Below, piece by piece: positions 2,645 to 5,297 of a stretch of 5,297 nt of DNA. The notes below the pieces were generated by a model. It was not told the DNA's origin. It made no database searches and saw only the letters and a program-made list of their open reading frames with translations. The stretch comes from a virus: positions 1 through 5,297 of the IMG/VR virus record IMGVR_UViG_3300045988_028789, one strand, 5' to 3'. Position 1 is the stretch's first letter; every line of letters starts with the position of its first letter. Made by a program: the position numbers and the translations under genes.

Positions 2645-3499
2645 ATGGTATTACCAGCCTTTTTAGGAGCCTTAGAAACAGGCACGAAAATACTGGGCGG
2701 CGTAAGCGGTCTTATAAGCGCCGGAACAGGCATCTACAACGCACTCAAAGGCACATCAGGTAGCGGAGCAACAAGCTCAAGCGGATACCAAACAAGTCAA
2801 GGGGCAAGCGGTTCGACCATGACCGGAGAAAGCGGGGTAAACGTAGACCAAACAAAAGACCTCGCAAAATACTTCCTTGGTCAAAGTCAGCAAGCACAAG
2901 GGATGCAGAGCTTGCAAAACAACAAAAACTCTCTCATGGCACTGGGATTAAACACTCTGGGAGCTATCCAGCAGGGCGTTTACAATCGTATCCAGCAAGA
3001 CGCAGCAATGTCCTACAACTCCGCAGAGGCAGCAGCTAACAGAGCATGGCAGGAGCGAATGAGTAACACAAGCTATCAAAGGACAATGGCCGACATGGAA
3101 AAAGCGGGACTTAATCCCATACTGGCCTACGCACAAGGCGGCGCAAGCACTCCGGGAGGAGCACAAGGAAGCATCGGCCAAAGCAGCATAAGCGCACCAA
3201 GCGTTGGAACGCAGTCGGCAAGTATGCCGACAATCTCCGGTACAATGGCAAACTATAGCCGCCAAAAGGCGGAAAGCTGGTCGTGGACAGACTCGCACGG
3301 AGAGCAGCACAGCAGCGGCTACAACAGCTATCAAACAGATTTCCCGGATTTAACGCCTTGGCTCAATCAAAACAAAAACAGCGGCGAAAAAGCCGGAAAT
3401 AACACGGTGGACGCGCTAAGCGGAGCTGACCACAAAGCAAGAAGCGGCAAAGTGCCAAATCTTAATCCGATGAACAAATATATTAACGGAGGCAAATAA
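2645..3499 (+). CDS. Minor capsid / DNA pilot protein VP2 (phiX174 H analogue), about 284 aa from ATG 2645 (the track uses TTG 2639)
   Basis: Composition is typical of gokushovirus VP2: a hydrophobic N-terminus ([27 protein letters not shown]), a Gly/Ser/Gln-rich low-complexity centre and a C-terminal [12 protein letters not shown]-type segment. It lies between VP1 and VP4. TAA 3497..3499 overlaps the ATG 3499 of VP4 (TAATG). Confidence 0.75.
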
Positions 3500-4521
3500 T
3501 GAGTTGCGAACGACCACTTATCCGCGTATACAATCCGAATGACCACAACATAACAGGGTCAATAATGACCTTAGAAAAGTACAGAGAAAGAACGCACAAT
3601 CCAACAGCAACTTATGAGAGCATCGCATACAGACCAGACGTAATGCTACTACCGTGCGGAAAATGTTTGGGATGCAGACTCAGACAGCGGCAAGATTGGG
3701 AAACGCGAATGCTGATGGAGTCAAAAACACTAACTCCAGTATGGTTTTTAACTCTAACATGGAATCAAGAATATGTGCCCGGAATGATAAGAGCAACAGG
3801 CGAACTTATACGTGGAGCAGTACACCAGTGGACAACGGGAGACGCGCCAGAAGTTGTGCAAATCCTATTGCAAAAGGACATGGTACTTTTTAACAAGAGG
3901 CTCCGAAAAAAGCAAGAAATGTCCGATAAATGGGGTACAGACCTCAGATATTTTTATTGCGGCGAATACGGCGAAACCACAGGCAGACCGCATCACCATG
4001 CAATCTATTATGGGTTAGAAATACCAGACCTCAAGAAAAAAAGAGGCAATAATCCATACTTTGAGAGCGAAACAATAGATAGAATCTGGGGAATGGGCAA
4101 TGTCATCATTGCAGAAGCATCACCGGAAACAATGGCGTATGTAGCGGGATATGTGACAAAAAAAGCCTACGGCAACGACACAAAACGATACAATGAACTA
4201 GGACTACCAGCGCCTTACTGCTGTATGTCACGAAATCCGGGCCTAGGATACGACTACTACCAAGAGCACAAAGAGCAAATGTACAAAGACGATGGGCTAT
4301 ATTTTAACGGCAAAAAAAGGCCCATTCCAAGGTACTTTGACAAAATGCAAGAAACTGAAAATCCCAAAAGGTTATGGGAAATCAAAGAAAAAAGGCAATC
4401 AAGTGCAATAAATGCACTTAAAGTCAAAATGTCAAACACAGACGTAACCATCGAAGAGCAAGGAAAAATTAAGGAAAAGAATCTCAGAGAACGCTTTAGT
4501 AAAGCAAGGGGGATTCTCTAA
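3499..4521 (+). CDS. Rolling-circle replication initiation protein VP4 (phiX174 gene A analogue; HUH superfamily endonuclease), 340 aa
   Basis: All three rolling-circle Rep motifs are present: motif I FLTLTW (nt 3745..3762), motif II HHHAIYYG (HHH at nt 3991..3999) and motif III with paired catalytic tyrosines YVAGYVTKK (nt 4138..4164; compare phiX174 A YVAKYVNKK). There is also an N-terminal CGKCLGCR Cys cluster. SD GGAGG lies at 3488..3492 with a 6-nt spacer. Confidence 0.93.
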   Translation: MSCERPLIRVYNPNDHNITGSIMTLEKYRERTHNPTATYESIAYRPDVMLLPCGKCLGCRLRQRQDWETRMLMESKTLTPVWFLTLTWNQEYVPGMIRATGELIRGAVHQWTTGDAPEVVQILLQKDMVLFNKRLRKKQEMSDKWGTDLRYFYCGEYGETTGRPHHHAIYYGLEIPDLKKKRGNNPYFESETIDRIWGMGNVIIAEASPETMAYVAGYVTKKAYGNDTKRYNELGLPAPYCCMSRNPGLGYDYYQEHKEQMYKDDGLYFNGKKRPIPRYFDKMQETENPKRLWEIKEKRQSSAINALKVKMSNTDVTIEEQGKIKEKNLRERFSKARGIL

Positions 4522-4530
4522 ATGGTGTCA

Positions 4531-4566
4531 GTGGGCCTAATCCTATCAAGAAACGATTAGGCCCAC
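4531..4566 (+). other. Perfect 12-bp stem-loop (GTGGGCCTAATC / GATTAGGCCCAC, 12-nt loop) 10 nt after the VP4 stop
   Basis: 4531..4542 is the exact reverse complement of 4555..4566. It is not followed by a T-run, so it may be an ssDNA structural element or origin/primosome-type hairpin rather than a canonical terminator. Confidence 0.5.
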
Positions 4567-4618
4567 ACCTAAAATTCATAGTCATTCACGGCTAAACAAA
4601 TCATCACTCATAAAAGTG

Positions 4619-4666
4619 AGGGGTCTCCTACGGGAGACCCCTTTCGTCTGCGCCCCTAGTAGGGGC
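4619..4666 (+). other. Two adjacent GC-rich hairpins (10-bp stem AGGGGTCTCC/GGAGACCCCT with a UACG-type tetraloop; 6-bp stem GCCCCT/AGGGGC with a 3-nt loop)
   Basis: 4619..4628 pairs with 4633..4642, and 4652..4657 pairs with 4661..4666. CTG trinucleotides sit between and after the hairpins (4647..4649, 4667..4669). They could be a weak terminator (CCCCTTTCG) or a complementary-strand origin-like structure. Confidence 0.45.
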
Positions 4667-4703
4667 TGCCGAGGTCACGAAGCGAATCATAAGTTCAATC
4701 ACA

Positions 4704-4754
4704 GTACACGCGCACGCACGCACGCGCGAAACGCGCACGCACGCACGCACGCAT
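4704..4754. repeat. Perfectly alternating purine/pyrimidine tract, (CACG)n/(CGCG)n tetranucleotide repeats in two 22-25-nt arms around GCGCG-AAA-CGCGC
   Basis: Seen directly: gtacacgcgcacgcacgcacgcgcg aaa cgcgcacgcacgcacgcacgcat. Alternation is unbroken over 4704..4728 and 4732..4754. It has Z-DNA-forming potential and is a simple-sequence (slippage-prone) repeat. Confidence 0.8.
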
Positions 4755-4815
4755 TCTATTATTTTATTCATTACTTGTTGTAGTCGTAGTAGTAGTGTAT
4801 GTGGAAAAGTTGAAT

Positions 4816-4846
4816 GTGATAATAATTCTTCGTTATCACGTGATAA
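4816..4846. promoter_or_regulatory. 14-bp perfect palindrome TTATCACGTGATAA (4833..4846) plus an upstream third half-site GTGATAA (4816..4822); candidate dimeric protein-binding operator
   Basis: TTATCACGTGATAA is its own reverse complement. GTGATAA at 4816..4822 is also the reverse complement of TTATCAC (4833..4839) and gives an alternative 7-bp stem with a 10-nt loop. Confidence 0.5.
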
Positions 4847-4874
4847 TTAACAACATTTCTCAGTTGAAAGTTTT

Positions 4875-4965
4875 GTTGAAAACTTGTGGAAGATGTTGAA
4901 ATATAGCAAGTTGCACAAAATCCTTTGTGCATATTGTTGTTGAAAACTTGTGGAAAGTGTTGAAA
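4875..4965. repeat. 27-bp direct repeat GTTGAAAACTTGTGGAARRTGTTGAAA (4875..4901 and 4939..4965; 25/27 identical, 64-bp period) with additional GTTGAAA / GTGGAAA reiterations (4801, 4864, 4968); iteron-like
   Basis: Seen directly in an AT-rich block. A 7-bp hairpin GCACAAA/TTTGTGC (4913..4930) lies between the two copies. Confidence 0.7.
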
Positions 4966-5000
4966 ATGTGGAAAACTCAGGAACCAGTTAGTATAAGCAA

Positions 5001-5077
5001 TCTCGCCTGCGGGCGAGAAACCGACGCCTTGCCCAAAATTGCTGCGCAACCTTGGGCAAAACGCCGGTTGTTTTTTT
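5001..5077 (+). terminator. GC hairpins (TCTCGCC/GGCGAGA 5001..5018; TTGCCCAA/TTGGGCAA 5029..5059 with an internal mini-hairpin) followed by a T-rich run TTGTTTTTTT (5068..5077); terminator-like element closing the non-coding region
   Basis: The reverse-complement arms were verified by eye. A T7 run follows 8 nt after the last stem. It would terminate read-through from VP4 before the promoter of the gene chain. The spacing to the T-run is slightly long for a canonical intrinsic terminator. Confidence 0.4.
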
Positions 5078-5095
5078 ACAGAAAAGCATTATAAT
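5068..5095 (+). promoter_or_regulatory. Sigma70-like promoter candidate: -35 TTGTTT (5068..5073), 16-nt spacer, -10 TATAAT (5090..5095)
   Basis: The -10 hexamer is a perfect consensus. The -35 matches 3/6 (TTGxxx). It sits about 15-25 nt upstream of the SD-like AAGGTGGTG and the first ORF of the + strand gene chain, right after a terminator-like element. Confidence 0.35.
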
Positions 5096-5111
5096 AGACT
5101 ATAGAAAGGTG

Positions 5112-5297
5112 GTGTTTCAAATAACAGAAGCACGAAGAAAACAACTCAACACCAGCGTAATAAAGCCGTCAGAGCAAGAAGATTTCGAATACCTCATCAA
5201 AAAACTTTACAGAGCGCTCAATCGAGCATATACTGTAGAAGAAGCCAAAGCTATCGTAGAAGAAATCTACAAACTCAAGGCCGAAAGAATTGAAAAG
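5112..5297 (+). CDS. Small hypothetical protein spanning the linearisation point (continues at 1..79 by wrap; roughly 65-72 aa depending on start), helical and charged, unknown function
   Basis: The frame is open from 4992 through the wrap to a TAA at 77..79. It contains no ATG. Candidate starts are GTG 5109/5112, or a non-canonical in-frame ATA 5121 placed 6 nt after an SD-like AAGGTGGTG (5106..5114). The translation (..EARRKQLNTSVIKPSEQEDFEYLIKKLYRALNRAYTVEEAKAIVEEIYKLKAERIEKEMSIWHS) looks protein-like. Its stop overlaps the ATG of the next ORF by 13 nt, a coupling pattern. It lies just downstream of the candidate promoter. Confidence 0.3.
   Translation, partial: MFQITEARRKQLNTSVIKPSEQEDFEYLIKKLYRALNRAYTVEEAKAIVEEIYKLKAERIEK
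5243..5297. repeat. Terminal redundancy (copy 2 of 2), identical to 1..55
   Basis: Exact 55/55 identity with the window start. It is consistent with a circular ssDNA phage genome assembled with overlapping ends. Confidence 0.9.

Follow-up and report, generated by a model that had tools for sequence, protein, structure and literature searches.

A conserved alternating purine-pyrimidine tract of gut gokushoviruses as a candidate strand-asymmetric stem-loop element

Described systems and the gokushovirus tract

The closest described counterparts of the element treated here are the Z-DNA-forming (CG)n/(CA)n tracts of plasmids, the intergenic hairpin clusters of single-stranded DNA (ssDNA) replicons (the three stem-loops of G4 oric, the n' site of phiX174, ori(-) of M13 and single-strand origin, or sso, cassettes), the palindromes of repetitive extragenic palindromic sequences and bacterial interspersed mosaic elements (REP/BIME), Rho-independent terminators and tetranucleotide contingency repeats. 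A further lead is provided by iteron/DnaA-box origins such as ori-lambda with its 28-bp palindrome and RK2 oriV with its GC-rich region, in which a GC-rich element lies beyond the AT-rich unwinding region. The subject of our analysis is a tract at positions 4704-4754 of IMG/VR record IMGVR_UViG_3300045988_028789, a DNA of 5,297 nt whose whole length is referred to as the window. To judge from its sequence, the window is a circular gokushovirus genome (55-nt terminal direct repeat, circle of 5,242 nt), and the tract appears to be a conserved, accessory and strand-asymmetric stem-loop element, the last hairpin of a module that follows the replication gene. A literature search returned no paper tying Microviridae to Z-DNA, DnaA boxes or this element.

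With the plasmid tracts it shares the unbroken alternation of CG and CA steps, and its modelled transition at a superhelical density (sigma) of about -0.045 lies between those of (CG)12 (-0.038) and (CA)12 (-0.051) in the same modelled circle. Unlike them, the gokushovirus tract is bipartite and has a conserved loop, compensatory changes and outer inverted repeats, and it never mixes CA with TG steps. The position among imperfect hairpins that cluster between the genes of an ssDNA replicon is reminiscent of G4 oric and its equivalents, and the surrounding module is orientation-specific, accessory and exchangeable, as are sso modules, whose hallmarks are an accessory, cassette-like, exchangeable and orientation-fixed nature; however, the preserved pairing of the tract is on the other strand and the viral-strand fold in the window is weak. 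Motifs resembling RS_B or CS-6 were not seen either, although no search was aimed at them. REP/BIME palindromes and terminators are comparable as GC-rich imperfect palindromes behind the last gene of an operon, often with a T-rich stretch next to them, whereas the tract occurs once per genome, has A.C mismatches in the transcribed sense and received no plus-strand terminator call.

The (CACG)n units recall contingency repeats. Tandem Repeats Finder reports 11 copies of a CGCA unit (4711-4753, period 4, 75% matches), and the unit number differs between subclades, but it is constant within them, conservation exceeds that of the flanks five-fold and the tract lies neither within nor ahead of a reading frame that it could switch. 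The order of DnaA-box-like repeats, (TAG)n, AT-rich stretch and GC-rich palindrome in the window corresponds to that of ori-lambda and RK2 oriV. In five relatives, however, the DnaA-box/trio cassette is inverted and the tract is not, which places the tract next to the box end or about 190 nt away, and there is thus no conserved, fixed coupling to the unwinding element.

Sequence, recurrence and conservation of the tract

The tract reads GTACACGCGCACGCACGCACGCGCG-AA-ACGCGCACGCACGCACGCACGCAT, with strict purine/pyrimidine alternation over 25 nt (4704-4728) and 24 nt (4731-4754) and AA between the two runs. It lies within the sole large non-coding region of the window (4522 to ~5110), directly 3' of the open reading frame (ORF) for the replication-associated protein VP4 (3499-4521, + strand). 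On the + strand, the left arm (4704-4728, 25 nt, GTA-CACG-CG-(CACG)3-CGCG) and the right arm (4732-4754, CGCG-(CACG)4-CAT, with an alternating run of 24 nt if begun at A4731) flank an AAA loop or interruption at the dyad centre (4729-4731), where relatives have AAA, TAAT, GTAG, TAG, CAGA or 2 nt. The central GCGCG-AAA-CGCGC (4724-4736) corresponds to a 5-bp G-C stem with a triloop; its closing pair is invariant in 16/16 aligned lineages and the remaining four pairs are G-C or C-G in 13-15 of the 16. Apart from their ends, the arms contain C as the only pyrimidine and only CG and CA steps on the + strand, and they also form a direct repeat of 21 nt with 95% identity.

The runner-up alternating run in the window has 15 nt. 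The longest run in each of 2000 dinucleotide-preserving shuffles had a mean length of 12.7 nt and never exceeded 22 nt (0/2000 reach 24), which rules out a chance origin. A preliminary description of the locus had thus correctly recognized an alternating tract with a GCGCG-AAA-CGCGC core in a phage intergenic region as unlikely by chance, its run lengths of 25 and 23 nt now being 25 and 24 nt. No Rfam family was found at gathering score; the only overlap was mir-3149 at chance level (24.7 bits versus 100). A scan for generic C-purine alternations of at least 30 nt retrieved more than 120 unrelated viral contigs of all sizes and was uninformative about a microvirus-specific composition; such tracts per se are not special. 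A 55-aa ORF (4616-4783) crosses the tract and was dismissed as coding, since the arm lengths vary by 4 nt between subclades.

Among 48 loci chosen by VP4 similarity alone, 18 harbor the same bipartite tract at the same place and at least 10 others are clearly without it. The 24-nt core, used as a query, matched 25 IMG/VR contigs (all 4.3-5.7 kb) and 13 metagenome contigs, of which 11 are microvirus contigs and two represent a CRISPR (clustered regularly interspaced short palindromic repeats) array; the matches comprise 31 distinct sequences. The tract was seen in more than 30 independent assemblies and in about 20 lineages. Remoter GenBank gokushoviruses carry variants with the loops TAAT, GTAG, TAG, CAGA or 2 nt, or without a loop (KT264789, KT264793, KX513868, KT264791, MG945138, MG945334, MG945430), and KT264790 has an ordinary perfect, non-alternating hairpin at the equivalent position.

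The CRISPR array (repeat GTCGCCCTCCTCGCGGAGGGCGTGGATAGAAAT; 65 and 27 copies) is located on two human-gut metagenome contigs (L221, 1-4397; L209, 1-1823). At least 12 of its spacers match this gokushovirus clade, with protospacers preceded by TTC as protospacer-adjacent motif; two match the window 34/34 (2507-2540 and 574-607), and another consists of the tract, 31/34 nt being identical to window positions 4714-4744. The preliminary description had named an assembly or chimera artefact, or an inserted contaminant, as what would overturn it; both are excluded because the tract recurs in many independent assemblies and GenBank records and has been captured by a CRISPR spacer, and the assembly junction of the window does not coincide with it. 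A host-derived repeat was rejected as well. The 24-nt core has a single match in a scan of the genomes of 185,579 species, with unrelated flanks at a contig end of a metagenome-assembled genome (L208, 21-44; CAXTCJ010000051.1, an uncultured Acetobacteraceae); it sits at the extreme end of a 34.5-kb contig with GC-rich flanks and probably arose by chance from low complexity or as an artefact of the contig end.

The tract is about five times more conserved than its flanks. In the VP4-defined subclade B (11 loci) its divergence is 3.5%, compared with 20.5% and 18.6% in the 100-nt left and right flanks, and in subclade A (5 loci) it is 1.6% versus 3-4%. No change of unit number was found within either subclade; the CACG number varies only between deeper subclades, the window, L046 and L216 having one extra unit per arm relative to the L015/L016 type. 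The search for length polymorphism in related genomes that the preliminary description had proposed therefore speaks against its view of a slippage-prone repeat generating population heterogeneity by copy number, and a contingency repeat is not indicated by these sequences.

Dyad symmetry, strand asymmetry and their explanation

In all lineages the two arms are opposed across a loop of 2-4 nt and thus constitute a bipartite quasi-palindrome. The inverted repeat often runs past the alternation into non-alternating flanks (ACAGGC/GCCTGT, TCATGCGC/GCGCATGA, TATAG/CTATA, TACACG/CGTGTA). For pair counts we aligned 16 lineages over a 24-pair stem and scored both strands, the inner 17 pairs providing 272 cells. 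On the complementary strand all 272 inner cells are G-C, A-T or G.T, and the whole tract of this strand (4704-4754, -) is predicted to form an uninterrupted single hairpin of such pairs. Compensatory double changes between GC and AT occur in register in 14 pairs and 47 cells. This number exceeds both controls (19.6 +/- 3.7 in shuffled alignments, 0/500 of which attain 47, and 16-20 with the partner slid by 2), as does the covariation score of 0.497 (shuffled 0.325, 0/500; slid by 2, 0.29-0.33).

The same cells read on the gene-sense strand comprise 178 G-C, 23 A-T, 71 A.C and 0 G.T. Each T within an arm opposes an A (23/23 cells), and every remaining non-Watson-Crick position is A.C in the gene sense and hence G.T on the complement (71 versus 0), so that the gene-sense strand, presumably the packaged one, has A.C mismatches at about a quarter of its positions. 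The predicted folds of the window differ correspondingly between the - and + strands, with -16.8 versus -9.2 kcal/mol as DNA and -36.6 versus -14.3 kcal/mol as RNA. The + strand DNA fold is no better than that of shuffled sequences (z = +1.32; 181/200 shuffles fold equally well or better), whereas the viral-strand fold of L007 exceeds its shuffles (z = -2.55). The complementary strand is the stabler one in 17/17 lineages, by 5.7 kcal/mol (DNA) on average. Among other hairpins the strand difference is at most 0.4 kcal/mol in three and 3.1 kcal/mol, in the same direction, in a fourth (5015-5075); the mismatches of the hairpin at 5019-5069 in the non-coding region are also exclusively A.C (5/5).

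A mutational or compositional origin of the A.C-only pattern was considered and rejected. Singleton substitutions in 27 aligned genomes are symmetric (G>A 59.7, C>T 61.4 per 1000 sites) and the non-coding DNA outside the tract has no A+C excess, although synonymous sites favor A over G and C over T. The strand asymmetry of the tract therefore looks selected. Transversions among the same singletons are asymmetric on the gene-sense strand (C>A 25 versus G>T 6.6; A>C 21.8 versus T>G 0 per 1000 sites), a pattern that hints at strand-specific damage or selection. The argument from AT skew for the antisense strand as the packaged one was dropped, the cultured phiMH2K having the same A-rich coding strand.

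Alignment with the tract-less loci L003, L005 and L013 identifies the tract as the third and final hairpin of an accessory module of ~190 nt (4567-4753, +), which is inserted between the first hairpin after VP4 (4531-4566, +; GTGGGCCTAATC...GATTAGGCCCAC) and a T/A-rich spacer with the conserved TTACTTGTTG (4755-4780, +) directly 3' of the tract. Its first hairpin (4619-4642; AGGGGTCTCC-TACG-GGAGACCCCT) has a perfect 10-bp stem and is terminator-like, with a T-run on the minus side in the window; the second is located at 4652-4666 (GCCCCTAGTAGGGGC). The whole module may be present or absent in genomes whose VP4 proteins are 95-97% identical. About 20 gut lineages have the CA form on the gene-sense strand, among them KT264784, KT264800, KT264801 and MG945447, in which the neighbouring repeat cassette is inverted.

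A distant clade (L053, L055, L060 and L072; VP1 ~40%, VP4 ~27-30% identical) contains an identical 33-nt core in unrelated flanks. In this clade the tract adjoins an 86-aa ORF on the opposite strand. These genomes are IMG/VR contigs of 4.6-4.8 kb and appear ambisense: the 86-aa ORF has a canonical promoter (TTGACA-17-TATTAT) and a bidirectional terminator and is oriented opposite to the VP genes, and the VP-sense strand is G+T-rich with an AT skew of -0.16 to -0.28, compared with +0.27 to +0.36 in the gut clade. A recognition element of the Rep protein VP4, comparable to the GAGC repeats of adeno-associated virus Rep, is unlikely because tract presence is uncoupled from VP4 type: proteins that are 95-97% identical occur with or without the tract, and the clade with only 27-30% VP4 identity has an identical core.

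The analysis establishes that the tract is conserved, covaries as a dyad, is strand-asymmetric with no mutational bias to match, belongs to a module and, in the gut clade, keeps a fixed orientation relative to the genes; the functional state, namely the fold of the complementary strand, and the process in which it acts are what we infer. The tract would be a selected stem-loop, a GC-rich and strictly alternating quasi-palindrome whose preserved fold is that of the strand complementary to the genes or of an RNA copy of this strand. It may act as a hairpin while the region is single-stranded or transcribed antisense, for example as complementary-strand DNA or a primer on the incoming viral strand, in the unwound replicative form, or as antisense RNA near a replication-control region. 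Because the complementary strand pairs throughout and the gene-sense fold is no better than shuffles, such a hairpin is the likeliest mode of action, and action as duplex Z-DNA or as a mutable repeat is less likely; we nevertheless propose it tentatively, with low confidence.

Several observations weigh against this hairpin. With the partner slid by 2, 80-83% of the positions still pair, which means that any C-purine alternation will pair automatically to a large extent; a pure (CACG)n alone yields the observed rhythm of two pairs followed by two wobbles. What truly favors a selected stem are the register-specific exchanges between GC and AT and the outer stems. In addition, the gene-sense hairpin is itself stable in several lineages (-20 to -27 kcal/mol), the module is dispensable and many of the closest relatives lack it, and in the distant clade the 33-nt core is inverted relative to the structural genes and, lying between sigma70-like promoters that point away from each other, probably escapes transcription. 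We know of no step in microvirus replication during which the complementary strand becomes single-stranded. Minus-strand promoters lack conservation (the window alone has a 9/12 match, and none was found in L016), and in most lineages the minus-sense hairpin is not followed by a U-run.

A more specific version of the proposed hairpin, to which we accord a low probability, assumes that transcription of the viral strand yields an antisense structured RNA or primer whose body is the module (4567-4753) and whose long 5' stem-loop is the tract. The restriction of all wobbles to G.U in the minus sense would thereby be explained. In the window, the minus strand has a promoter-like site (4846->4819, 9/12) and, at the far end of the module, a terminator-like hairpin (4642->4619) followed by CACTTTTATG; these signals are not conserved in L016 or L002. 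A separate candidate for an antisense small RNA was noticed on the minus strand at 4992-5120, comprising a promoter-like sequence (5120->5091; TTGAAA-18-TATTAT, 10/12), a hairpin (5069->5019) with five mismatches, each of them A.C on the + strand and G.U in the minus sense, and a terminator-like hairpin (5018->5001) with TTGCTTATAC.

Among the rival explanations, the Z-DNA torsion sink or switch of the preliminary description survives best, though we rate it as rather improbable. Each arm would flip into the left-handed form under negative supercoiling of the replicative form and absorb ~4 turns, thereby modulating the melting of the neighbouring AT-rich, origin-like or promoter region. By sequence the tract is the most Z-DNA-prone segment of the genome. 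In a two-state B-Z model (energies of Ho et al. 1986; 5 kcal/mol per junction; circle of 5.2-5.3 kb) the midpoint of each arm lies at a sigma of about -0.044 to -0.046 and ranges from -0.036 to -0.053 in 18 related versions, whereas cruciform extrusion is modelled at -0.10 in the window and at -0.047 to -0.106 across lineages. Purified replicative form, or DNA in the wake of RNA polymerase, should attain the modelled value of ~-0.045, which is borderline for average in-vivo tension; Z-DNA is thus, according to the model, a physically plausible and accessible alternative structure of the duplex. The alternation is unbroken within the arms of about 20 lineages, mismatch positions included, and also in the loop-less 44-nt version of KT264793. 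The tract of the distant clade lies between divergent promoters, the site of highest transcription-driven negative supercoiling, and a function at the duplex level would be indifferent to orientation, matching the opposite orientations in the two clades.

A physical potential for Z-DNA is accordingly supported in part, but the remaining features are left unexplained by it: the loop-bearing bipartite dyad, the compensatory changes between GC and AT, the inverted repeats that extend into non-alternating flanks, the absolute strand asymmetry of the mismatches, and the fact that no strand mixes CA with TG steps. The arms are out of phase across a 3-nt loop and in phase across one of 4 nt, and a joint transition of both to Z is hence not conserved. 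A stem that tolerates transitions only will keep its alternation automatically, since transitions alone preserve it, and given an alternating ancestor no selection for Z-DNA is needed. The modelled threshold also exceeds the unrestrained in-vivo sigma of about -0.03 that is usually quoted, and KT264790 has a non-alternating hairpin at the position of the tract.

A leaky Rho-independent terminator or insulator, or a 3'-end stabilizer of the gene-sense VP operon transcript, is an unlikely explanation. In most lineages the tract comes after the final gene of the operon, its orientation to transcription being fixed, and T-rich tails are present in many lineages (TTCTATTATTTTATT in the window, TTTTTTATTTT in L007, ATTTTTATTATTT in L199, TTTTATTTTT in KT264800/KT264801); in tract-less relatives the hairpin in front of the same T-rich stretch resembles a canonical terminator, and the plus-sense RNA hairpin reaches -13 to -45 kcal/mol. 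Selection on gene-sense RNA should, however, tolerate G.U and purge A.C, the reverse of the 71 A.C and 0 G.U found. The window hairpin (-14.3 kcal/mol, tail UUCUAUUAUUUUAUU) was not called as a terminator by a consensus scan, which gave no plus-strand call in L016, L007 or L002 either. Several lineages lack a T-run (L200, MG945447), the tract of KT264784 is located 70 nt upstream of VP4, and other terminator-like hairpins already lie ahead of the tract.

Equally doubtful is a role of the tract as part of a complementary-strand (minus) or single-strand origin read on the packaged viral strand. Candidate sites of minus-strand initiation in microviruses are usually sought among their intergenic hairpins (PMC9865509), and the tract is one of three clustered intergenic hairpins in an ssDNA phage, within an accessory, cassette-like module that is exchanged between lineages and keeps its orientation to the gene-sense strand even beside an inverted cassette. 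This origin would have to fold on the viral strand, where the window is no better than shuffles (-9.2 kcal/mol, z = +1.3) and the type of mismatch, A.C, speaks against selected pairing; moreover, the orientation is reversed in the L053/L072 clade, and the universally conserved first hairpin with the loop CTATCAAG is the better candidate. This loop (~4543-4553, in the hairpin 4531-4566) is conserved across the gut-gokushovirus lineages examined, with a covarying stem. Its complementary-strand reading, (A)CTTGATAGG, is the same as the CTTG|ATA core at which phiX174 and pC194-type origins are nicked; the nick-like core sits on the strand opposite to the genes. Like ACTTG|TTG at 4773-4780, it is a candidate nick site of VP4.

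A duplex site for a host or phage protein, for example a regulator between promoters, a strong gyrase site or a reader of tandem CGCA, has a still lower probability in our estimation. It would account for an exact sequence that is highly conserved relative to its flanks and for the identical 33-nt core shared by two clades with unrelated flanks and proteins that are only ~27-40% identical; in the distant clade the tract is situated just upstream of a -35 element, and a duplex site is workable in both orientations. The half-sites nevertheless differ systematically (CAC versus GTG), unlike a symmetric dimer site, the lineages differ by compensatory substitutions and not by fixed contact bases, arm length and spacing vary (direct-repeat spacing 19-23 bp), and the missing correlation with VP4 type argues against an element of Rep specificity. 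Finally, a neutral simple-sequence expansion as a by-product of slippage, or a functionless assembly artefact, is very improbable: the low-complexity tetranucleotide periodicity, the more than 120 unrelated viral contigs with C-purine alternations of at least 30 nt and the dispensability of the module would fit, but not the run length attained by 0/2000 shuffles, the five-fold conservation over the flanks with constant length within subclades, the compensatory changes, or the many independent assemblies and the CRISPR spacer.

Neighbouring elements and implications

A bacterial basal unwinding system consists of a DnaA box with at most 2 mismatches, a spacer of up to 16 bp and at least three DnaA-trios with a central A, 3'-GAT-5' being preferred (PMC8287927; definitions of trio and box also from PMC10201434). 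A module that starts 27 nt downstream of the tract, past the AT-rich stretch and TTACTTGTTG, conforms to this sequence definition and is predicted to be such a system. It comprises DnaA-trio-like repeats and a putative DnaA box (4781-4808, +; TAG-TCG-TAG-TAG-TAG, the 4-nt spacer TGTA and TGTGGAAAA, with one box mismatch). Four further TGTKGAWAA boxes lie in the non-coding region (4755-4975), all on the + strand, and the window contains six versus 0.18 expected. The exact pattern (TAG)3-N4-TGTGGAWAA was present in 32 fetched loci, and the orientation, AT-rich stretch followed by the box as TGTGGATAA, agrees with the E. coli oriC fragment. For the tract this module is context, and joint action of the two is hypothetical.

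Five relatives carry the whole trio/DnaA-box cassette in the direction opposite to the structural genes, namely L225 (KT264784, 2592-2781), L226 (MG945447, 1220-1411), L227 (KT264800, 3856-4016), L228 (KT264801, 3888-4048) and L224 (KX513876, 5386-5567). This argues that the cassette would not be a strand-specific rolling-circle nick site and that its orientation may be free. Two candidate functions are weakened by the inversions: that of ACTTGTTGTAG as the nick site of VP4 on the viral strand, and that of the tract as a one-sided latch at the edge of a DnaA-opened AT-rich region, which fits the window, whereas in the five relatives the cassette is inverted without the tract. Further downstream, GTGATAATAATTCTTCGTTATCACGTGATAATTAAC (4815-4848) holds the palindrome TTATCACGTGATAA and the inverted repeat GTGATAA/TTATCAC; KT264793 and MG945334 contain related sequences (GTTATCACGTGA).

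All long ORFs of the window are located on the + strand. Besides VP4 they include a Chlamydia-phage-type scaffold protein (536-1012, +) and the Phage_F major capsid protein (1009-2601, +; E = 1e-173). Megablast with the window retrieved 15 Microviridae/Gokushovirinae records from human, pig and dog faeces; the top match is KT264798 with 90% identity over 82% of the genome, annotated with VP1-VP5.

Of the phages in the human and animal gut, gokushoviruses belong to the most abundant, and very little has been described of their cis-acting replication and regulatory signals. The CRISPR array that targets the clade provides a handle on the host of the virus. The tract is a compact test case for hairpin versus Z-DNA function and, together with the DnaA-box/(TAG)n module, offers targets for mutagenesis in a resurrected gokushovirus. 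If the antisense RNA or primer proves true, it would be the first regulatory or priming antisense RNA described in Microviridae, and it would adjoin an apparently host-DnaA-dependent control region (DnaA box plus DnaA-trio). The strand signature implies that some process reads one strand as a folded single strand; if so, the life cycle of these phages would include a step outside the phiX174 paradigm, for which an asymmetric open complex and an antisense RNA or primer are examples.

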